From: a virus
DNA length: 16,382 nucleotides
UHGV virus genome: UHGV-0181023
Reading direction: 5' to 3' (one strand)
Positions within the stretch are counted from its first letter, which is position 1. Each line of letters starts with the position of its first letter. Positions 6,906-14,147 of the stretch are shown here, piece by piece. The position numbers and the translations under genes were made by a program. The notes below the pieces were generated by a model. That model saw nothing but the letters and a program-made list of their open reading frames with translations. It did no database searches and was not told the origin of the DNA.

Positions 6906-7595
6906 CTAACCAAATCTGTTTATATTGAATGGTACTGATGAGATCACTTTAGACTGGATATAAAGCAGAGCTAACCCCTCTTTTTCGATGCTCCATGGTT
7001 GATAATTGGGGTTATCAGATAACACCATGATTTTGCTTCCAATTTTTTGAAGTCTTTTCACGTAGCATTCTCCATCAAAACAAAATGCATAAATGCCATC
7101 GCCATCAAAATAAGTTACTGTCTTATCAAGAAAAAGAAGGTCGCCAGGTGAGATTGTGGGAGCCATACTGTCTCCTCTGGCGTTACCTATTTCTATATTT
7201 TTGAATGCCCGATTTCCAACAAGGCGTCGGGCATATTCAGGATCAAGTTCTATTGAGCGCACTACATCTATCAAGTCACCACGGACATGAGTTCCATCAC
7301 CGCAACTAAACTCAACATCAAGGACATTAAACACGACGCTATCTGTTCTTGTCTGGTGTTTCTCTTGCGAGGAAAAGGTTGGTGAGGAGTCTTCACCTAA
7401 GAACCAGGATTGTGGATAACCGCTAATCTCGGATAAATGCGCGAGCTTATCACTCCGTGGAAATGTTTTTCCTGTTGTCCAGTACTGCACTGATTGCGCA
7501 CTCACACCTAACTTGCGGGCCAGTTGAGCCTGAGTCCATCCTTTTGCTTTCAGCATCGCGGCTATTCGATTTTCCGTGTTTTTGACGTTCTTCAT
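6906..7595 (-). CDS. cI: CI-type prophage repressor (N-terminal HTH, C-terminal LexA-like S24 peptidase domain)
   Basis: HTH GWTQAQLARKLGVSAQSVQYW; peptidase motifs GDSMAPT (Ser) and YVKRLQ (Lys); ORF track lists a TTG at 7601, ATG at 7595 preferred; divergent from the cro-like gene. Confidence 0.9.
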   Translation of the reverse strand: MKNVKNTENRIAAMLKAKGWTQAQLARKLGVSAQSVQYWTTGKTFPRSDKLAHLSEISGYPQSWFLGEDSSPTFSSQEKHQTRTDSVVFNVLDVEFSCGDGTHVRGDLIDVVRSIELDPEYARRLVGNRAFKNIEIGNARGDSMAPTISPGDLLFLDKTVTYFDGDGIYAFCFDGECYVKRLQKIGSKIMVLSDNPNYQPWSIEKEGLALLYIQSKVISSVPFNINRFG

Positions 7596-7728
7596 GACCA
7601 AATCCTGTGGGTTTCTTTACAAGGATAAATCTTTACTTGATTTTAGTGTATTCGATCCTTTTGCAACTTGCATGTTAATTTAAACTTGATGTATTCTTGA
7701 TTTATAAAGTTAATGTTGGTGCTTTGTT
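7596..7728. promoter_or_regulatory. immunity-region operator/promoter intergenic region (PRM/PR analog) with three direct copies of an ACTTGAT-type motif
   Basis: 133-bp AT-rich spacer between divergent repressor and cro-like genes; motifs at 7635..7642 (ACTTGATT), 7684..7691 (ACTTGATG), 7695..7702 (TCTTGATT); candidate PR elements TTGATG (7687..7692) and TAATGT (7711..7716). Confidence 0.6.
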
Positions 7729-8001
7729 ATGAAAGGAAATGATTACGACAAACTTCGTGCATTAATTGCGCAAAATGCCATAGCGCGAAATCTTGGTGTG
7801 ACGCCGCAAGCGGTGAATCAGTGGTTTTCAAAAAACACAATTCCTGCTCGTTTCGTTTTACGCGTATGTGAAGTAGTTGCATGGAAGGTCACGCCACATG
7901 GCTTAAGGCCAGATCTTTATCCTCACCCTGAAGATGGAATTCCTGATTCGTTACGCAAAATTTCAAATCCAAGCTTAGCGCACACAGAGGACGAGAAGTG
8001 A
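7729..8001 (+). CDS. cro: Cro-like regulator of the YdaS/Cro-CI HTH family
   Basis: 90-aa ORF divergent from the repressor; motif LGVTPQAVNQW...LRPDLY resembles Rac YdaS-type Cro analogs. Confidence 0.8.
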   Translation: MKGNDYDKLRALIAQNAIARNLGVTPQAVNQWFSKNTIPARFVLRVCEVVAWKVTPHGLRPDLYPHPEDGIPDSLRKISNPSLAHTEDEK

Positions 8002-8041
8002 TGGTGGTGATATGAGCGAAAAAATAACTATTAAATACGAT

Positions 8042-8064
8042 GGGGCAACCATTTCGATTGCCCC
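8042..8064 (-). terminator. candidate hairpin downstream of the 8072..8365 gene (weak terminator candidate)
   Basis: Inverted repeat GGGGCAA...TTGCCCC with 9-nt loop; a T-rich tract follows on the minus strand but about 15 nt away, so not canonical. Confidence 0.25.
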
Positions 8065-8071
8065 AATCACA

Positions 8072-8365
8072 TTAGCGTTCGCTGAGAAGTTGTTGGTAAG
8101 CCTTAAAGGATGCGAACTGCATTCTACCTTCGGCATTGATTCCAATGCCTTCGCTTGTACACCAGGTGATGAACTCGGCTGTATCCGCTTCAACTTTAAT
8201 AACTCGTTGCCCGCTTCTTTCGACACGCTTAATCAATTTTTCAGCGTCGTGTTTCCACTCGGTGTAACTGTCGGAGAGCACATCAGCATCAGTAAAAATA
8301 TTTTTGAGCTCATGATACTGAATCGCATCGCGAAACCAGAATAAACCAACGGCCTGAACTTTCAT
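8072..8365 (-). CDS. hypothetical protein, 97 aa, encoded opposite to the early-right operon (moron-like)
   Basis: ATG at 8365 with AAGGAGG 6 nt upstream; protein-like charged composition; competes with the overlapping plus-strand ORF 8012..8344. Confidence 0.55.
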   Translation of the reverse strand: MKVQAVGLFWFRDAIQYHELKNIFTDADVLSDSYTEWKHDAEKLIKRVERSGQRVIKVEADTAEFITWCTSEGIGINAEGRMQFASFKAYQQLLSER

Positions 8366-8484
8366 GTCGAACCTCCTTTGGTTCTTTTGTTTATAGGGAT
8401 CAAAAGGATAACTGAAGGAAGGTTCGGCACCAATAAGTACGAATGTGCGGAATCTTAAAAGAATTTATCCGTAAGGAGATGGCA

Positions 8485-9192
8485 GTGAACACCGCAATTT
8501 TTAACGACAAAGCATCCATGACCAGCGTTGAGATCGCAGAGCTGGTGGGTAGTCAGCACTCAGATGTTAAACGTAGTATCGAACGCCTGGTTGCTAAAAA
8601 CATCATCCGGAAACCGCCAATGGCTGTTTCCGAGAAAATCAATAACTTAGGTTTTAAAGTTCAATATGAGCATTACCTGTTTGAAGGAGAACAAGGTAAG
8701 CGCGACAGCATCATTGTCGTCGCACAGCTCTGTCCTGAATTCACTGCTCGCCTGGTAGATCGCTGGCGCGAACTGGAAGAACAGATCCGTAAGCCAATGA
8801 GCGAAATCGAAATGGTTGCCGCGATGGCTCTTGAAGCAGTTCGTCAGCAGAAACGGATCACTCAGGTGGAAGAAAAAGTCAGCCACGTTGCTGAAACAGT
8901 CGAGCAAATTAAAAAGGGCACTATTCGTGAGGGCTATGCCGGATATCGCCAACTGAAAGCAAAAACCGGTTTGTCAGATGATAAATGCCGCAATCTGGTG
9001 AACGCCTATCAAATTCCTACAGACACACATGAGTTCATGACGCCGGACGGATTGTTGTCACGTCGCGCAATTGTTGCTGTGGAACCGTTTATGGCTGCTT
9101 TTTATCGGGTTATGGAGGAAGCAGAACCGCGAGGGACTCGCTGGTATCACCCGAAAATGGGGTTATTTCAGGTTATTGGTTGGCAGCGGTGA
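8485..9192 (+). CDS. Rha-family-like phage regulatory protein (N-terminal DNA-binding domain, unknown C-terminal domain); start uncertain (ATG 8443 or 8479, GTG 8485)
   Basis: ORF-track frame 8443..9192; AAGGAG at 8473..8478 abuts ATG 8479 (spacing too short) and is 6 nt before GTG 8485; motifs SVEIAELVGSQHSDVKRSIERL and EHYLFEGEQGKRDSIIVVAQL resemble the Rha N-terminal domain. Confidence 0.65.
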   Translation: MNTAIFNDKASMTSVEIAELVGSQHSDVKRSIERLVAKNIIRKPPMAVSEKINNLGFKVQYEHYLFEGEQGKRDSIIVVAQLCPEFTARLVDRWRELEEQIRKPMSEIEMVAAMALEAVRQQKRITQVEEKVSHVAETVEQIKKGTIREGYAGYRQLKAKTGLSDDKCRNLVNAYQIPTDTHEFMTPDGLLSRRAIVAVEPFMAAFYRVMEEAEPRGTRWYHPKMGLFQVIGWQR

Positions 9193-9215
9193 AAAAAAGC
9201 CGGGAGTAACCCGGC
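9192..9215 (-). terminator. terminator-like hairpin reading on the minus strand (GCCGGG-AGTAA-CCCGGC followed by T7)
   Basis: On the plus strand an A7 run precedes the hairpin with no T tail after it, so it functions as a terminator only for leftward transcription. Confidence 0.35.
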
Positions 9216-9414
9216 TCACTCAACATCAATAACGGGGAGCTGTTTCGCATAAAACGGCTCCGAAACATCCAAGAACAGTTCTAAAGATATCAGCAGCTAT
9301 ATGATCATTTCAAGACCAAATATTGATTCTGCAATTTCGGGACGTTACACTGTCTCTGCACCTTATAAAGCGGGTGCCGGGGGTCGCAGCCCGGAATTGT
9401 CAACGGCGATATAT

Positions 9415-9434
9415 GACGCGCCAGCGTCTTTTTT
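9415..9434 (+). terminator. terminator-like hairpin (GACGC-GCCA-GCGTC followed by T6) inside the spacer upstream of rha
   Basis: 5-bp GC stem, 4-nt loop, T6 run; within a frame that is open but looks non-coding. Confidence 0.3.
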
Positions 9435-9600
9435 ATCGTCCGCGCTCACGCACGCCAGAATTATGGTGGGCTGGGCAGGGGAGCCGAAAGGCTCGCCGGT
9501 CTCCGTTGACGCCGGTACTGCGAACCCTGTTCAGTCTGCCACCAGTGAGTTTCGCAGCTCCGGTGGTGGAAGTTTTCCACAGTCAACGGAGGCTGCCATC

Positions 9601-10152
9601 ATGGCTACGATCCCAACCCTCACTCAACCTGAAATTGCCATCGTTGATGGTCAGGCTGTTACTTCATCCCTGGCTGTTGCCAACTTCTTCTCCAAGCGTC
9701 ATGACGATGTACTGAAAAAGATCCGCACGCTTGAATGCTCCGCATCATTCACTGCCCGCAATTTTTCGGTGAGTGATTACACCGATTGCACAGGCCGCAA
9801 ACTACCTTGCTATCAAATCACCCGCGACGGTTTTGCGTTTCTTGCCATGGGCTTCACTGGTAAACGTGCTGCCCAGTTCAAAGAGGCATACATCAACGCC
9901 TTTAACCTGATGGAGAAGAGTTTATCAGGTGCCGATGCGTCTGATATGTCAGCTGTCGCACGAAACGCCAGAGGCGTATACCTGCATTTGCGTGAAATCC
10001 ATCAAATCTGGACAAGCCAGCTTTATCCAATGCTTAAGGCCGTTGAATCTCCGCTGGCTAGCAAACTGTACGACCGTGTTGGTGATGCTGTTTTTGGCGC
10101 TGCACTTGTTGATTCCAGGCTGAATGGTTCTGACAAGGAGGTTCGCCCATGA
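9601..10152 (+). CDS. rha: Rha family phage regulatory protein
   Basis: ORF-track frame 9301..10152; ATG at 9601 has GGAGG 8 nt upstream; product QPEIAIVDGQAVTSSLAVANFFSKRHDDVLKKIR...YQITRDGFAFLAMGFTGKRAAQFKEAYINAFN matches the Rha pattern; the 100 codons upstream are low-complexity G/S/A-rich. Confidence 0.8.
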   Translation: MATIPTLTQPEIAIVDGQAVTSSLAVANFFSKRHDDVLKKIRTLECSASFTARNFSVSDYTDCTGRKLPCYQITRDGFAFLAMGFTGKRAAQFKEAYINAFNLMEKSLSGADASDMSAVARNARGVYLHLREIHQIWTSQLYPMLKAVESPLASKLYDRVGDAVFGAALVDSRLNGSDKEVRP

Positions 10153-10343
10153 TTAGTTACGAAATCATCATCTCCACTACGGAATACAGAAACGATGTAT
10201 CAGTTCGCACGGATGTATCTGTCTGGCACCGTTGCTATAAATCCAGAAAAACAGCGGAACTGAAAGCGGCAGAGATGTGTGAAACCATCTCAATGAAAGG
10301 TAGCCCGGTTAAATACGTAACTACGGCGGAGGTGCGTCCATGA
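10149..10343 (+). CDS. hypothetical small protein, 64 aa
   Basis: ATGA overlap with the rha stop; AAGGAGG 7 nt upstream. Confidence 0.6.
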   Translation: MISYEIIISTTEYRNDVSVRTDVSVWHRCYKSRKTAELKAAEMCETISMKGSPVKYVTTAEVRP

Positions 10344-10564
10344 TCCGCCACATCGTTAATTCCCTGTATCACCGATACAACCGTTGCCCCCGTGTGGGGC
10401 AGTGGTTCGCCACCAGCAACGGTCACGTTCTGCGGGTTTGCCTGGTCAACGCTGAAAGCCAGAAAGTCGTGTGCGAACTACAGGGGCGTAGCTACACCAT
10501 CAGTTACCCTCTGGCGGTATTTCTGTCTGGAAAAATGTTTAAGCGTCTGGGAGGTGTGGCGTGA
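10340..10564 (+). CDS. hypothetical small protein, 74 aa
   Basis: ATGA overlap with upstream stop; GGAGGTG upstream. Confidence 0.6.
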   Translation: MIRHIVNSLYHRYNRCPRVGQWFATSNGHVLRVCLVNAESQKVVCELQGRSYTISYPLAVFLSGKMFKRLGGVA

Positions 10565-10860
10565 ACTGTTTTCAGTTTGTGTGCGGATGTGCTTTCGATA
10601 ACCCGATTCAGCGCCTGATTATGTTGCGTGTTTTGATGTCGGGTTCTTCAGACGGTGAAGGCGAGAGAGTTATTGATCATCAGGTGCTTGCTGATTTCTG
10701 CTGTTGTTCTAAGCAAGCGATATTCAGGGAAACCCTGGCACTGGAAAGAGCTGGTTATCTTCATATCCGAAAAATTGCAACGCTTACTATTGATGCAAAA
10801 GCCAGACTACAACCTGCGCGTGGCTACACAATTCTCATGCCGCGGAAGGAGGTTGTATGA
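10561..10860 (+). CDS. hypothetical protein, 99 aa, Cys-rich N-terminus and possible HTH; GTG start
   Basis: GTGA overlap with upstream stop; GGGAGGTG 4 nt upstream; stop overlaps the start of the replication initiator gene. Confidence 0.55.
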   Translation: MNCFQFVCGCAFDNPIQRLIMLRVLMSGSSDGEGERVIDHQVLADFCCCSKQAIFRETLALERAGYLHIRKIATLTIDAKARLQPARGYTILMPRKEVV

Positions 10861-11861
10861 GCCGTTACGCCCCCACACCGGAAGTTATGGCTATTGGTCA
10901 AATTAATATTTCCGGCAATGTTACACCTGCGAACTGGTGGAAATATATTCGACTACCCAGTGGGCGTCCGGATGCGACGGCTATCGCTCTGCTTTCAGAG
11001 ATCGTTTACTGGTACCGCCCGACAGAGGTCAGGGATGAGCACACCGGAGCGTTGCTGGGATATCGCAAGCGTTTTCAGGGCGACAAACTGCAAAGAAGCT
11101 ACCAGGCGTTTGCTGAGCAGTTTGGTTTCGGGAAAAGGGAAACCGCAGATGCGCTGAAGCGTCTGCGCGATGCAGGGTTTATTACTCTGGATTTACGCAC
11201 GGTGGAAATGCTCGATGGGGTGAAATGCAGCAATATTTTGTTTGTCGGGATCAACCCACAGGCAATTGCGGCCATCACCACACCTTCTTCTGTTTCGCCA
11301 GAAAGTAACAGCAATAATGCAATCAGCGATACAGCTATTACGTTAAAACGGAACACCCCCCGACGTCATAACGGAACAGGGGATACGCCGAATGTTGATA
11401 CAAATACAGAGATTACTACAGAGATTACTACAGAGATTACAACGGAGACTAAAAACACTATTGATGCATCCGCTGACGCGTCTGCGCCAGCGCGTTCTGC
11501 CCGACAGGAATATTCACCGGAATTTGAACAGGCCTGGCAGGAATATCCCAAACGTGCTGGTGGCAATTCCAAGTCAGCAGCCTTCAAAGCCTGGAAAGCC
11601 CGTATCAGGGAGGGAATAAAACCGGAGACCATGCTTGATGGCGTGAAGCGGTATGCCGCCTGGGTACGTGCTACAGGAAATACCGGCACACAGTTCGTGA
11701 AGCAGGCCGCGACGTTCTTTGGACCCGATCGTCACTTCGAAGATTACTGGCAACAGCCAGCCGCTCACGGAGGTGGGCGACAGCGACAGGTCGATGTCCT
11801 GGCTGGCCTGGGAGCCATGTCTGACAAATTCGGTAAATCCAGTAACAAATTGACATTCTGA
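10857..11861 (+). CDS. replication initiation / replisome organizer protein (lambda O-like architecture with iterons inside the linker-coding region)
   Basis: 334-aa ORF, ATG preceded by GGAAGGAGG; internal 12-bp tandem repeats encode TEITTEITTEITTETK; immediately followed by DnaC-like and DnaB-like genes. Confidence 0.8.
   Translation: MSRYAPTPEVMAIGQINISGNVTPANWWKYIRLPSGRPDATAIALLSEIVYWYRPTEVRDEHTGALLGYRKRFQGDKLQRSYQAFAEQFGFGKRETADALKRLRDAGFITLDLRTVEMLDGVKCSNILFVGINPQAIAAITTPSSVSPESNSNNAISDTAITLKRNTPRRHNGTGDTPNVDTNTEITTEITTEITTETKNTIDASADASAPARSARQEYSPEFEQAWQEYPKRAGGNSKSAAFKAWKARIREGIKPETMLDGVKRYAAWVRATGNTGTQFVKQAATFFGPDRHFEDYWQQPAAHGGGRQRQVDVLAGLGAMSDKFGKSSNKLTF
11406..11453. repeat. candidate replication-origin iterons: four tandem 12-bp units (ACAGAGATTACT x2, ACAGAGATTACA, degenerate ACGGAGACTAAA)
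   Basis: Read directly from sequence; two copies of AACGGAACA at 11347..11355 and 11370..11378 lie just upstream; location inside the initiator gene parallels ori-lambda inside O. Confidence 0.6.
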
Positions 11862-11871
11862 GGTGACAGCG

Positions 11872-12750
11872 ATGATGACGATTGACCAACGTGAGAAACA
11901 AACAAGACTACAGGCGCGAATGGATGAGTTACGGGCAGAGATTGCATTTGCTCAGAAGGGCGAAAAGCCATGGCCTTATCGTTCCTGCCTGATGCGTGAA
12001 GGTCACGGATATTGCGAAAAACACGGTAAATATCGTACGCATATACTGGTGTGGATCGATCGTAATGGCGAGGACAGAGAAAAAATTTCATGCTGCCCTG
12101 ACTGCTTGATCGCTGAGGCCAGTGATTTGACCATGGAACTGTCGTCCCTCAAGGCGGAAGAACTGACTGATAACGCCGGAATTGCTCTGCGTTTTCGGGA
12201 CTGCGAGTTTGATAATTATCTGGAGGTTAATCCTGACGCAGCCAGAAATCTTGCGGCCTGTCGCCGCTATGCGGAGAACTGGCCAGATATGCTGGAGAAC
12301 GGTACCAGTCTTGTTATGACCGGCAGTTGCGGTACCGGGAAAAATCATCTGGCGGTATCAATGGCAAAACACATCATCCGTAACTATCTGGCCAGTGTGG
12401 AGATCACCGACGTGATGCGCCTTACCCGGGCTGTGAAAAACTGCTGGCGGAATGACAGTGAAAAAACAGCGGATGACGTCATTGAGCATTATGCGTCACT
12501 GGATTTGCTGATTGTCGACGAAGTCGGCGTTCAGTTTGGCAGTGCGGCTGAAATGGCCATTTTGCAGGAAATTATCAATGCCCGGTATGAGGGTATTTTG
12601 CCAACTATCCTGATCAGCAACCTTTCACCGGAAGAATTGTGGGCGTTCATCAGTCCCCGGATTGCCGACAGGATCACCGATGGCGGGCGCAACTGGTTGT
12701 CGTTTAACTGGCCCAGCTACCGTTCTCGTATCGGAGGTGTTGCCGCATGA
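11872..12750 (+). CDS. dnaC: DnaC/IstB-like AAA+ helicase loader with a Cys-rich N-terminal extension
   Basis: Walker A GSCGTGKNHLAVSMA and Walker B LLIVDEVG; ORF-track start is GTG at 11863, ATG at 11872 preferred (GAGGTG 7 nt upstream); N-terminal cysteines C-x8-C...CC-x2-C; ATGA overlap with the helicase gene. Confidence 0.8.
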   Translation: MMTIDQREKQTRLQARMDELRAEIAFAQKGEKPWPYRSCLMREGHGYCEKHGKYRTHILVWIDRNGEDREKISCCPDCLIAEASDLTMELSSLKAEELTDNAGIALRFRDCEFDNYLEVNPDAARNLAACRRYAENWPDMLENGTSLVMTGSCGTGKNHLAVSMAKHIIRNYLASVEITDVMRLTRAVKNCWRNDSEKTADDVIEHYASLDLLIVDEVGVQFGSAAEMAILQEIINARYEGILPTILISNLSPEELWAFISPRIADRITDGGRNWLSFNWPSYRSRIGGVAA

Positions 12751-14147
12751 CCAGCCAGAACACCCCGGCATGGCGTAACGATGACCTGGAAGGCGCTGTC
12801 ATCGGTGCGTTTTTTCTGCGTGGGGCCGATCCGGAAGTGATGGATATTCTGGCCACACTTCCGGCGGATGTATTTTTTGTGCGTCAGTACCGGGATATTT
12901 ACGCGGGGATTTGCAGACAGGCTCGCATATCCGGCGTCATTGACCCCGTACTGCTGTGCAATGAGATGCCGGAACTTGCCCCGGTGATTACCGACACCGG
13001 ACGCAAAACCTGGGTGAAGTCTTCACTGGAGCACTATGTCGCAGCGTTGCGGCGCAATGCCGCACTGCGCGATGCAGAAAAAACACTGACTGAAGCATTA
13101 CAGAATTTACGTGATGCGTATACCTGTGAAGCAGCCGAGGGCGCCCTGAAGGATGCGCAGAACATGATGGCCTCACTGTCGACCGGAAAGGGCGTCATTC
13201 AGCCGGTTCACATTGATGATGTCCTTCCGGAAGTGGTCGACCGTGTTGAATGCCGCAATCAGGGACTGGAGAAATCCAGGGCGCTGATGACCGGTATTGA
13301 TGAACTGGACGCAAAAACGGGCGGTATGGAGCCCGGAGACCTGGTATTCATTGCCGCCCGTCCTTCGATGGGGAAAACCGAACTTGCGCTGGACATCATC
13401 GACAAGGTGACTGAGCAGGGGCATGGCGTGCTTCTGTTCACCATGGAGATGGCGAACATCCAGATTGGTGAACGTATGGTGTCTGCTGCCGGTGGAATGC
13501 CGGTATCCCGTCTTAAGTCTGTTGCCCGTTTTGAAGATGAAGACTGGGCGCGTTTCTCGCAGGGCGTGGGACGAATGACGGGGCGTAATATCTGGATGGT
13601 GGACCAGGCAAACCTGACCATTGATGAGATATGTGCAACCACGAAGCACCACCGGATGAAACACCCGGAAACGGCGCTGGTGGTGGTCGATTACCTCGGC
13701 CTGATTAAAACCCGCAGCACGGGGCGTCACGACCTTGCGGTGGGGGAAATCTCAAAGGGACTTAAAAGCCTGGCAAAATCCGGCGGTTTTCCGCTGATTG
13801 CTCTGAGCCAGCTCTCCCGCGGCGTGGAATCCAGACCCAATAAACGCCCAATGAACTCGGACCTGAAAAACTCCGGGGAAATCGAGGCGGATGCCGACAT
13901 CATTCTGATGCTTTACAGGGATGAGGTATACAACCCGGAAACTCAGGCCAGAGGCATAGCAGAAATCAACATCACGAAACAGCGTAATGGCACGCTCGGG
14001 ACCATTTACCGGCGTTTTCATAACGGACATTTTCTGCCTGTGGACCAGGAGAGTGCCCGGGTTCTTTCCACACCCATGACGCCGGGCAATCCGCGCAGAT
14101 ACAGCAATAACCGCATGTCGGGCAGTAAAACGGAGCGTTTATTTTGA
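12747..14147 (+). CDS. dnaB: DnaB-family replicative DNA helicase
   Basis: 466 aa; Walker A ARPSMGKTELAL; SGEIEADADIILMLYRDEVY resembles the DnaB motif SGxIEQDAD...YRDE; GGAGGTG upstream. Confidence 0.9.
   Translation: MTSQNTPAWRNDDLEGAVIGAFFLRGADPEVMDILATLPADVFFVRQYRDIYAGICRQARISGVIDPVLLCNEMPELAPVITDTGRKTWVKSSLEHYVAALRRNAALRDAEKTLTEALQNLRDAYTCEAAEGALKDAQNMMASLSTGKGVIQPVHIDDVLPEVVDRVECRNQGLEKSRALMTGIDELDAKTGGMEPGDLVFIAARPSMGKTELALDIIDKVTEQGHGVLLFTMEMANIQIGERMVSAAGGMPVSRLKSVARFEDEDWARFSQGVGRMTGRNIWMVDQANLTIDEICATTKHHRMKHPETALVVVDYLGLIKTRSTGRHDLAVGEISKGLKSLAKSGGFPLIALSQLSRGVESRPNKRPMNSDLKNSGEIEADADIILMLYRDEVYNPETQARGIAEINITKQRNGTLGTIYRRFHNGHFLPVDQESARVLSTPMTPGNPRRYSNNRMSGSKTERLF

Follow-up and report, generated by a model that had tools for sequence, protein, structure and literature searches.

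The region upstream of the Rha-family gene rha has been read in two ways. In the reference annotation (PGAP) it forms the first part of a 283-aa CDS (9301-10152), and in the original prediction it was a non-coding spacer with one possible small RNA. We asked what 9320-9600 of the window (the whole 16,382-nucleotide stretch of viral DNA analysed here) encodes. Our results indicate that this segment is very probably an RNA-based immunity or antirepressor-control cassette of the P4, P1/P7 and Gifsy-1 type, located within the early-right operon of a lambdoid prophage from E. coli. The spacer is indeed not protein-coding, but instead of a single small RNA it holds a complete regulatory cassette of two RNAs, the small decoy RNA IsrK and a C4/CI-type antisense RNA predicted to mask the rha ribosome-binding site. 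Both RNA families (isrK and C4) matched at full length and above the curated Rfam thresholds, and the structured transcript is far beyond chance. The architecture of 9320-9600 matches P1 immI, P4 seqA-CI-seqC and Gifsy-1 isrK-orf45-anrP, and the reference annotation mislabels this RNA cassette as protein.

The upstream boundary and the IsrK-type RNA

The cassette begins next to a mosaic joint at about 9318-9322. The segment 9185-9325 is 99-100% identical in nine phages, where it always adjoins a gene for Roi or a DNA-binding protein. The terminator scan found an intrinsic terminator on the minus strand at 9190-9217, which abuts the stop codon of the roi-like gene and consists of an 8-bp GC-rich stem (9217-9197) followed by a run of seven T on the minus strand (U7 in the RNA). 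A minus-strand hairpin had been predicted at 9192-9215; it is present, with its position shifted by a few bases. This terminator is part of the roi-like module upstream rather than of the cassette. An OOP-like leftward sRNA spanning 9277 to 9190 was also considered on the basis of a promoter-like site (9313-9284), this terminator and a fold z-score of -3.0, and it is unproven. A 71%-identical variant of this candidate kept the -35 and the terminator but not the internal hairpin.

On the plus strand, a putative cassette promoter at 9323-9351 was read from the sequence, with the hexamers TTGATT (9323-9328) and TACACT (9346-9351) separated by 17 nt exactly where they had been proposed, and transcription is predicted to start at G9358. 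The promoter fits the consensus at only 8 of 12 positions, which is why a consensus scan missed it. It is collinear with the Gifsy-1 promoter (TTGACA/TATATT) and is hence the positional homologue of the experimentally active PisrK, whose deletion abolishes transcription in Gifsy-1 (PMC4825925, Table 1A). Hexamers resembling -35 and -10 elements were observed at the same place in divergent homologues.

The 77 nt that follow (9358-9434, plus strand) matched the Rfam isrK model (RF01394) over model positions 1-77 of 77, with 58.7 bits (GA 50) and an E value of 1.3e-10. The element is an IsrK-type sRNA and is equivalent to the P4 seqA leader, or to Rfam c4-a1b1 plus a terminator. Its fold contains hairpin 1 (9358-9363/9372-9377), hairpin 2 (9378-9381/9390-9393) and a Rho-independent terminator (9415-9419/9424-9428) with U6 at 9429-9434. 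The GC hairpin expected around 9376-9396 was recovered as CCGGG (9377-9381) opposite CCCGG (9390-9394), and the expected plus-strand terminator at 9415-9434 as GACGC-GCCA-GCGTC (9415-9428) followed by T6 (9429-9434), which the terminator scan found independently. The structured transcript of about 70 nt that these three elements were thought to define is therefore the 77-nt IsrK homologue. The original prediction had also suggested a covariance comparison across homologues. In an RNAalifold alignment of 20 diverse homologues, compensatory changes were found in 8 of the 13 pairs of the IsrK fold, including all five pairs of hairpin 1. Hence, the three-hairpin fold is backed by covariation, and its context is that of Gifsy-1, collinear with it: a predicted promoter directly upstream, and a C4-like segment and a regulator gene downstream on the same strand. 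The Rfam c4-a1b1 model (RF03163) matched 9345-9397 weakly, at 17.2 bits versus a GA of 46.7, and the isrK model, spanning the same two hairpins, gives the better description of this element.

Two short segments of IsrK are complementary to the RNA encoded downstream. Site a1 (TCGCAG, 9384-9389, plus strand) lies in the loop of hairpin 2 and is complementary to the a' segment of the C4 RNA, whereas site b1 (GTCAACGG, 9399-9406, plus strand) is single-stranded between hairpin 2 and the terminator and is complementary to the C4 b' loop. Site a1 corresponds to G28/G31 of Gifsy-1 IsrK, for which pairing with C162/C159 was shown by compensatory mutations (PMC4825925). Since these mutated bases lie exactly in a1 and a', the pairing is experimentally validated in the homologue. 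The assignment of the letters a and b used here may differ from the P1 nomenclature.

The C4-type RNA and its recognition sites

The rest of the spacer had been taken as featureless, which was not the case. A C4/CI-type antisense RNA, homologous to STnc1160, was found at 9459-9546 on the plus strand, matching Rfam C4 (RF01695) over model positions 1-87 of 87 with 78.8 bits (GA 45) and an E value of 2.3e-14. It folds into a long basal stem enclosing two hairpins, and RNAalifold on 28 sequences found compensatory changes in 17 of its 27 pairs. Its mature form is predicted at about 9465-9545, with a tRNA-like end made of the stem, an A (9542) and then CCA (9543-9545); the processing site is presumably that of the known P1/P7 C4 and P4 CI RNAs, from which we placed it. 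The CCACC at the end of the RNA is kept in all homologues. A scan of the window for tRNA and tmRNA found neither, and the idea that the tRNA-like end is a real tRNA was rejected.

The C4 RNA exposes two recognition elements, the b' loop (CUCCGUUGAC, 9501-9510) and the a' segment (CUGCGAA, 9518-9524) in a single-stranded junction. Their downstream counterparts, also on the plus strand, are site a2 (TTCGCAG, 9551-9557) in the rha leader and site b2 at 9582-9592 (GTCAACGGAG, 9582-9591), which overlaps the Shine-Dalgarno (SD) sequence of rha, GGAGG (9588-9592). The exact complements measure 10 nt for b':b2, 8 nt for b':b1, 7 nt for a':a2 and 6 nt for a':a1. Exposed segments of the RNA are thus complementary to sites both upstream and downstream, the downstream one lying over a ribosome-binding site. 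Within the 16-kb window, just two such pairs of a and b sites exist, one at 9384 and one at 9552. Folding of the read-through leader predicted cis pairing of b' to b2 and of a' to a2; when the C4 RNA is in its canonical fold, the SD is predicted to pair instead with CUCCG (9558-9562). The SD is thus sequestered in the modelled read-through leader, either by b' or by a local anti-SD.

A set of 27 specificity classes from 113 viral contigs was compared, and a'/a1/a2 and b'/b1/b2 were found to co-vary three ways. For the 8-mer core of b', the b2 site of the same class contained a perfect complement in 21 of 27 classes and the b1 site in 16 of 27, while no such complement was found among the 682 non-cognate class pairs in either comparison (b1 or b2). 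The a' 7-mer had a perfect complement in its own a2 in all 27 classes and in its own a1 in 22, versus none of 542 non-cognate pairs in either comparison. The b' sequence is hypervariable among homologues and tracks b1 and b2; a' occurs in five variants, with a1 and a2 changing accordingly. The classes, which recombine, comprise at least 18 b cores and at least 5 a cores. The SD (GGAG) invariably forms the end of site b2, and its spacing to the start codon is constant. A megablast search of two divergent cassette types (L033 and L007) against the phage collection, aimed at an anchor in P1 or Salmonella phages, returned nothing useful. The three-way covariation in 27 classes provides a ready data set for studies of RNA-based heteroimmunity.

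These results also bear on a reading in which IsrK is an independent trans-acting sRNA of about 70 nt, with targets elsewhere and a functionless spacer behind it, or in which the terminator at 9415-9434 acts mainly as a tR1-like attenuator relieved by antitermination. Rfam lists IsrK as an Hfq-binding RNA, and a further terminator-like site at 8369-8384 suggests an antitermination-dependent operon. The IsrK terminator lies between the cro/roi genes and rha plus the replication genes, on the same strand, and must therefore affect read-through from the early promoter. The tR1-like alternative of the original prediction fits only in part: the terminator does lie on the route of rightward early transcription, but the characterised relatives P4, P1 and Gifsy-1 work through RNA-RNA pairing and not through a simple attenuator. 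Behind IsrK, the supposed spacer contains the conserved C4 RNA, itself covarying, together with the sites it targets. Nucleotides that vary in IsrK do so in step with the neighbouring C4 RNA and not with an external target. In Gifsy-1, moreover, the toxic and inducing effect of IsrK needs the intact cis locus (PMC4825925). An attenuator could be added to the two-RNA cassette, but it leaves the a and b sites unexplained. We consider this reading improbable, and a paired IsrK-C4 cassette is preferred.

The rha start and the open frame in the leader

The two-RNA cassette leaves the question of where rha begins. ATG 9601 is preceded by GGAGG (9588-9592), whereas a search for an SD upstream of 9301 found none, and the translation of 9301-9600 is rich in Gly, Ser and Ala (43 of 100 residues), as had been noted before. 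In the rha CDS, variable columns were distributed 6/11/32 over the three codon positions and the ratio of synonymous to non-synonymous changes was 106:34. In the leader, the corresponding values were 18/20/12 and 10:40, and the variation was concentrated in the a and b sites. The third-position bias begins at 9601. Since the leader lacks the codon-position signature of the rha CDS, ATG 9601 is likely the start of rha, in agreement with the original prediction, and the annotated start should be moved there. The SD and the ATG were found at the same offset in nearly all of 81 homologous leaders.

The gene starting at 9601 (9601-10152, plus strand) encodes a 183-aa Rha-family regulator and putative antirepressor, the cargo of the cassette. 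It matched Pfam Phage_pRha with 104.8 bits, the domain beginning at residue 21, and its PHROG matches are annotated as regulator and anti-repressor. Elsewhere, genes with Rha, Bro-N, ORF6N or HTH domains lie behind the cassette; of these domains, Rha, Bro-N and ORF6N are characteristic of antirepressor-type proteins in phages. No sequence similarity was detectable between the Rha protein of the window and Gifsy-1 AnrP, so a homology of the two was rejected and the antirepressor function of Rha is a family-level guess only. The CI-like repressor of the prophage is encoded at 6906-7601. The two Rha-like genes that flank the region were compared with each other as well, with no detectable relatedness.

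The annotated alternative is that the 283-aa ORF is real, with an "Ash" N-terminal domain fused to Rha and incidental matches to the RNA families. PGAP calls this CDS and, in many genomes, annotates the corresponding position as "ash family protein". Pfam Phage_ASH (PF10554) matched the leader translation with E values of 7.6e-14 alone and 7.8e-17 within the full ORF (52.5 to 62.1 bits versus a cut-off of 26). Several PHROGs include the leader translation, and databases treat 9301-9600 as protein, while a search of NCBIfam with the same translation returned no model. The frame is also free of stops over 300 nt here and in most close relatives. Between 9303 and 9600, frames 0 and 1 contain no stops and all five stop triplets fall in frame 2; in shuffled sequences, one such stop-free frame had a probability of about 0.07 and two together one of 0.007. 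We treat the two open frames as a by-product, not fully explained, of a GC-rich constrained RNA. Selection for an open frame in the leader was set aside, as the frame is closed in several distant members; the two variable codons in b' were too few for testing such selection.

Several observations stand against the 283-aa protein. Position 9301 lies upstream of the cassette promoter and beyond the mosaic joint near 9320, and the frame is broken in Gifsy-1 by a b' hairpin that is 4 nt shorter. The positions that vary are exactly the RNA recognition sites, and neither a conserved frame, a synonymous excess nor a plausible start accompanies the PF10554 match. The same profile matches the obsolete P4 "cI protein" ORF exactly over the CI RNA, although immunity in P4 is conferred by a processed RNA that is not translated (PMC4825925, discussion). 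The genuine epsilon protein of P4 matches a different family, and the "Ash" domain is fused to unrelated cargo proteins elsewhere. The profile has nevertheless been used as a P4 epsilon marker (PMC8628076), although it does not match P4 epsilon, and a paper on Stx-phage regulatory regions gives the "Ash domain" as of unknown function (PMC8951638). Taken together, a genuine Ash-Rha fusion is extremely unlikely, and both the 283-aa ORF and the Pfam "Ash" match look like translated-RNA artefacts. The "ash family protein" and PF10554 labels and the 283-aa CDS at such loci hide two RNA genes.

A less radical alternative keeps the RNA cassette and adds translation from ATG 9463 when IsrK opens the structure, giving a 229-aa extended Rha beside the 183-aa form and recalling the nested Ant1/Ant2 of P1. 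The frame concerned (9463-9600, plus strand; 46 codons without a stop, in frame with rha) is the counterpart of Gifsy-1 orf45, whose first AUG (position 107) aligns with ATG 9463. In Gifsy-1, over-expressed IsrK leads to translation of orf45, which anrP requires for its own translation (PMC4825925), and 9463 is likewise in frame with the downstream start and stop-free in most lambdoid relatives. On the other hand, ATG 9463 sits in the 5' strand of the C4 basal stem, a search upstream of it found no SD, and the predicted RNase P cut would fall within this AUG. The 46 codons carry no coding signature (variable columns 11/10/7 by codon position; 6 synonymous versus 23 non-synonymous changes). The in-frame relation to the regulator gene is lost in Gifsy-1 and others, and the fusion is therefore not conserved; where present, it may mean no more than that a constrained RNA carries no indels. 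An extended isoform is accordingly unlikely, though less so than the annotated protein, and the untranslated cassette followed by rha at 9601 remains our preferred reading.

Proposed control of rha and comparison with known systems

By analogy with the homologous systems, a working scheme can be proposed for the direction of regulation, RNA processing and polarity, with Rha as the presumed antirepressor. The moderate promoter at 9323-9351 would start transcription from about 9358, and the weak 5-bp terminator (9415-9434) would stop most transcripts, giving the 77-nt IsrK RNA. Part of the transcripts would read through, and transcripts from the upstream early promoter may also cross the cassette. 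The read-through RNA would carry the C4-type RNA (9459-9546), probably excised by RNase P at its tRNA-like end. On the leader, b2 would be bound by the b' loop and a2 by the a' segment, in cis or in trans, which would bury the SD ahead of ATG 9601, so that the Rha-family regulator would not be translated. On the model of P1 and P4, the untranslated message may undergo Rho-dependent termination before the translationally coupled downstream genes, including those for replication. IsrK holds slightly weaker copies of the sites (6 nt for a1, 8 nt for b1) and could therefore compete for a' and b', either in cis, as part of the long transcript, or in trans, as a separate sRNA. In Gifsy-1, excess IsrK turns translation of the downstream gene on, and both Hfq binding and the trans-activation of long-isoform translation by IsrK are known from Salmonella experiments only (PMC4825925). 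In the published Gifsy-1 model, the ribosome-binding site under control is that of orf45, to which anrP is translationally coupled (PMC4825925), rather than the SD in b2, so the exact step blocked may differ here. Repression by C4 may act in trans from the processed RNA, or in cis only.

The cassette lies directly upstream of the replication genes, in an early operon of a phage type that includes Stx-converting phages, and is therefore a candidate control point for induction. A more speculative extension, which we regard as possible but doubtful, is that it serves as P4-style RNA immunity for a lambdoid or Stx-type prophage: the C4 block of rha would impose Rho-dependent polarity on the replication module (10561-14147), and the a and b classes would form an RNA "address code" by which co-resident prophages and satellites silence or derepress each other's induction and replication. 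If this were true, the widespread "Ash" family (PF10554, PGAP "ash family protein") would be a translated-RNA artefact.

The closest known system is isrK-orf45(STnc1160)-anrP of Gifsy-1 in Salmonella (Hershko-Shalev et al. 2016, PMC4825925), which is collinear base for base with the locus described here. Both have the promoter, a 77-nt three-hairpin IsrK with a leaky terminator that Rfam isrK matches, the C4-like RNA, the a and b sites, an SD inside b2 and a regulator gene. The recognition sequences differ, the a site being UUGGCGU in Gifsy-1 and UUCGCAG in the window, and the b site AUCACCGG and GUCAACGGAG, respectively. Because the b' hairpin of Gifsy-1 is 4 nt shorter, orf45 is out of frame there and ends in an AUGA overlap with anrP, whereas the equivalent frame of the window continues into rha. 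As cargo, Gifsy-1 encodes an ORF6N protein and the window a Rha-domain protein. The Gifsy-1 cassette follows the Q-like antQ, while that of the window lies between the roi-like gene and the replication genes in the early-right operon.

The experimentally defined immunity region of the satellite phage P4 (PLE-seqA-CI RNA-seqC) matched the same two Rfam models above threshold, with the CI RNA at 8420-8507 and the seqA leader at 8615-8692. The scores of P4 and the window are close for C4 (74.9 and 78.8) and isrK (60.8 and 58.7), whereas the c4-a1b1 model gave 44.1 bits for P4 versus 17.2 for the window. In both, an antisense RNA is derived from the transcript that it regulates (by processing that is presumed for the window), complementary sites lie upstream and downstream, and a spurious overlapping ORF matches Pfam Phage_ASH. 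The outcome differs, since premature transcription termination that keeps the replication gene alpha silent is documented for P4 (PMC4825925), whereas a translation block of an antirepressor-type gene is suggested for the window.

C4 antisense RNAs have their prototype in the immI operon of P1/P7 (c4-icd-ant1/ant2), where the RNA keeps the Ant antirepressor of the same operon from being expressed (PMC8198154). P1 has an icd ORF between c4 and ant and a C1-repressed promoter, whereas the cargo of the window is a short Rha protein, and the likeness to P1 is by description, not by sequence. The a1/b1 sites of P1/P7 are said to lie upstream and a2/b2 downstream, with the ribosome-binding site in the downstream set; heteroimmunity reportedly arises from differences in the recognition sequences, and RNase P reportedly processes the C4 RNA at its tRNA-like end.

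The sar RNA of P22, which keeps an antirepressor (its target ant) in check, and the OOP RNA of lambda, which does so with an early regulator, are likewise small RNAs of phages. The minus-strand terminator at 9190-9217 occupies a position like that of the OOP terminator, directly against the 3' end of an early gene. Both sar and OOP are antisense RNAs encoded in cis, on the strand opposite their targets. The RNAs of the window are unlike them, being encoded on the same strand as their target and acting through short sites of the trans type. The region lies in an E. coli lambdoid prophage and represents a known kind of system; conceptually nothing at this locus is new, and it is an ordinary further copy of the RNA immunity cassette known from P1 (C4), P4 (CI) and Gifsy-1 (IsrK).

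RNAs and recognition sites upstream of rha

An Rfam scan at the curated thresholds, done twice, gave two full-length matches in the region 9193-9600, which the original prediction had described as a spacer with one possible small RNA. The isrK model matched 9358-9434 with 58.7 bits (threshold 50, E 1.3e-10), and the C4 antisense RNA model matched 9459-9546 with 78.8 bits (threshold 45, E 2.3e-14). A weak sub-threshold match to c4-a1b1, the model for the a1, b1 targets of C4 antisense RNA in the clan of C4, was found over hairpins 1-2 of IsrK. The proposed "~70-nt structured transcript" was correct, with a size of 77 nt. Because of the isrK match, the promoter, GC hairpin and terminator noted before are the IsrK promoter (TTGATT 9323-9328 and TACACT 9346-9351, spaced by 17 nt), its hairpin 2 (CCGGG/CCCGG, 9377-9394) and its terminator (9415-9428, followed by T6), all of which are present in the sequence. 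The small RNA therefore stood, while C4 had been missed, in the stretch taken as a G/S/A-rich in-frame extension; the observation was real, and what it mainly inferred holds but is not the whole picture. The IsrK / C4 (P1 immI, P4 seqA-CI-seqC) family of RNA immunity cassettes thus gains one more ordinary member.

Two exposed segments of C4, b' (CUCCGUUGAC, 9501-9510, in the loop of the second hairpin) and a' (CUGCGAA, 9518-9524, in the junction strand), are exact complements of two pairs of sites, all on the same strand. The upstream pair is in IsrK, where the loop of hairpin 2 holds a1 (9384-9389) and b1 occupies 9399-9406; at 6 and 8 nt, its complementarity falls slightly short of that of the downstream pair (7 and 10 nt), which consists of a2 (9551-9557), downstream of C4, and b2 (9582-9591), containing GGAG of the rha Shine-Dalgarno (SD, 9588-9592). 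These are the only two occurrences of the a...b arrangement in the 16-kb window. The lettering is meant to follow the P1 convention, but the original papers may use a and b the other way round.

Matches to a degenerate pattern that fixed the conserved C4 core but not the loops were found in 113 viral contigs, comprising 81 distinct cassettes and 27 b'/a' sequence combinations (classes). The upstream and downstream sites changed together with the C4 loops in every class. The b' core was perfectly complementary to its own b2 in 21 of the 27 classes and to its own b1 in 16, versus none of 682 non-cognate comparisons for either site; the a' heptamer perfectly matched its own a2 in all 27 classes and its own a1 in 22, versus 0/542 for each non-cognate comparison. 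The SD was always the end of b2, and its spacing to the start codon did not vary. Compensatory changes were observed in 17 of 27 pairs of C4 and 8 of 13 pairs of IsrK, which supports both folds. The -35/-10-like hexamers were conserved in the multiple alignment, and the terminator-to-C4 spacer varied in length, with some lengths not multiples of three. The tR1-like attenuation first offered as an alternative agrees with an IsrK terminator located between the early promoter and the rha/replication genes, but it leaves the covarying sites unaccounted for.

Across 110 loci, the cargo gene encoded Rha (65), a 64-aa protein (29), or Bro-N, ORF6N (AnrP, the Gifsy-1 cargo protein), HTH_35 and others; the Rha of the window and AnrP are unrelated in sequence. 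Since the cargo varies between cassettes, the RNA cassette is a portable regulatory module. The 113 contigs carry at least 18 b-type and at least 5 a-type recognition variants, which recombine freely (e.g., one b' is found with different a'), and the cargo may be Rha, Bro-N, ORF6N, HTH_35 or one of several small proteins of unknown type; movement of the RNA module is therefore not tied to the gene behind it.

The start of rha and the Ash family

Several annotation sources have 9301-9600 as protein-coding. RefSeq annotates 9301-10152 as a single 283-aa "Rha family phage regulatory protein", PGAP calls an "ash family protein" at matching loci of many E. coli genomes, Pfam PF10554 (Phage_ASH, Ash protein family) matches the leader translation (9346-9633, E 7.6e-14), and several PHROGs contain this translation, fused to unrelated proteins. 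Frame 0 has no stop for 300 nt in the window and most close relatives; over 9303-9600 frame 1 is stop-free as well, the five stop triplets being all in frame 2, and in shuffled sequence two or more open frames arise with a probability of ~0.007.

The evidence against a coding leader was stronger. Among collinear homologues, the rha CDS showed 6, 11 and 32 variable columns at codon positions 1, 2 and 3, and 106 synonymous versus 34 non-synonymous codon differences. The leader 9358-9600 lacked this pattern: 32 distinct sequences showed 18, 20 and 12 variable columns, clustered in a1, b1, b', a', a2 and b2, and 10 synonymous versus 40 non-synonymous variants. The 9301-9600 translation is G/S/A-rich, as described before (43%), and its ATG at 9301 has no SD, lies upstream of the cassette promoter and is separated from the cassette by a recombination joint at ~9320. 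The frame is broken in several distant members and also in Gifsy-1, whose b' hairpin lacks 4 nt compared with that of the window. A PF10554 match is also found in P4, on the obsolete "cI gene product (AA 1-137)" ORF (8330-8521, minus strand), precisely over the CI RNA, and according to the discussion of PMC4825925 the immunity factor of P4 is a processed RNA that is not translated. The genuine P4 epsilon protein belongs to another family, PF25738, not PF10554.

From the coding tests, the lack of an SD at 9301, the broken frames and the P4 overlap, we conclude that rha starts at 9601, as originally placed, with GGAGG eight bases upstream of the ATG. On the same grounds we take the "Ash" protein-family model to have been built from a conserved RNA locus; the family looks like an artefact of translated RNA. 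PF10554 has been treated in the literature as a protein domain of unknown function (PMC8951638) or as P4 epsilon (PMC8628076), and detection of CI and seqA relatives by the Rfam C4 and isrK models has been published elsewhere. The value of the locus is mainly annotation correction. ATG 9463 corresponds to the orf45 start of Gifsy-1; in the window it shares its frame with rha and could give an extended Rha isoform; this is possible but unlikely, because the codon-level test found no coding constraint in the 46 codons from it.

Genomic setting

E. coli isolates of human origin carry chromosomal prophages with 99% identity to the 1.8 kb around the cassette; of 5426 complete E. coli genomes, 1161 contain related sequence, and several Stx2-converting phages are 95-96% identical to the 408-bp region itself. 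In the gene order of the best-matching genome, the integrase, a CI-like repressor gene (6906-7601, minus strand), a Cro-like gene (7729-8001) and the roi-like Rha/Ant-type gene (8443-9192, directly before the cassette region) are followed, after the cassette, by the Rha-family gene, small coupled ORFs, replication initiator, loader and DnaB helicase genes and the Q antiterminator, which places the cassette in the early-right operon of a lambdoid prophage.

The minus-strand terminator reported before is canonical (9217-9197, followed by T7). Together with the sequence to ~9320, it (9190-9217) is 99-100% identical in nine phages and always attached to a Roi / DNA-binding protein gene; the block 9190-~9320 therefore belongs to the upstream module. 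A minus-strand promoter-like site, TTGAAA-18-TATCTT (9313-9284), and this terminator could delimit a leftward RNA of ~85 nt (fold z-score -3.0), abutting the roi-like gene stop codon in an OOP-like position. A 71%-identical variant retained the -35 and terminator and not the internal hairpin, and the leftward RNA is unproven.

Other features were observed in the window. A RefSeq 97-aa hypothetical protein (8072-8365, minus strand) is in the post-cro position where a cII-type gene is expected; it overlaps a plus-strand 110-aa ORF (8012-8344) with no Pfam or PHROG match, and a plus-strand terminator-like hairpin (8369-8384) follows. Downstream of the Q-family antiterminator gene, Rfam STnc100 matches 16202-16382 (plus strand, 132 bits, clipped by the window end), which probably represents the short leader transcript made from the late promoter.

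Predicted regulation and known systems

In the thermodynamic prediction for the read-through leader (9358-9620), b' pairs with b2 and a' with a2 in cis. Enforcing the canonical C4 fold was 6 kcal/mol less stable and left the SD paired, now with CUCCG at 9558-9562. Either predicted state would fit a long transcript that is not translated. By analogy with P1, P4 and Gifsy-1, from which the direction of regulation is borrowed, C4, in cis or once excised, would occlude the rha SD, and IsrK would compete for a'/b' and relieve the block; the ratio of the two RNAs may be set by the 5-bp IsrK terminator. RNase P would excise C4 at the stem-A-CCA end (9465 / 9542-9545), and Rha may act as an antirepressor. 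The genes after rha overlap start to stop from 10149 to 14147 (10149/10152, 10340/10343, 10561/10564, 10857/10860 and onward), as far as the replication initiator, loader and DnaB-type helicase, so blocking rha translation could have a polar effect on the replication module, possibly by Rho-dependent polarity on the translationally coupled genes.

P1 needs C4 RNA to keep the Ant antirepressor, encoded in the same operon as C4, from being expressed (PMC8198154). The three Rfam models also match satellite phage P4 in its immunity region, which has been defined experimentally, at the CI RNA (8420-8507) and the seqA leader (8615-8692 and 8653-8705); in the account given in PMC4825925, CI RNA pairs with seqA and seqC, causing premature termination and silencing of the replication genes. 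IsrK was characterised in Gifsy-1 of Salmonella, and the window can be aligned with that locus base by base between the promoter and the start codon. In Gifsy-1, some IsrK transcripts extend past the terminator, and the resulting isrK-orf45-anrP mRNA is translationally inactive; free IsrK binds the long transcript and turns translation on, upon which AnrP induces the prophage (PMC4825925). That study mutated G28 and G31 with C162 and C159, and also C18/G173. When the published numbering was applied to the Gifsy-1 sequence, the mutated bases mapped exactly onto a1 and a'; the a1:a' pairing has therefore already been validated in a homologue by compensatory mutagenesis.
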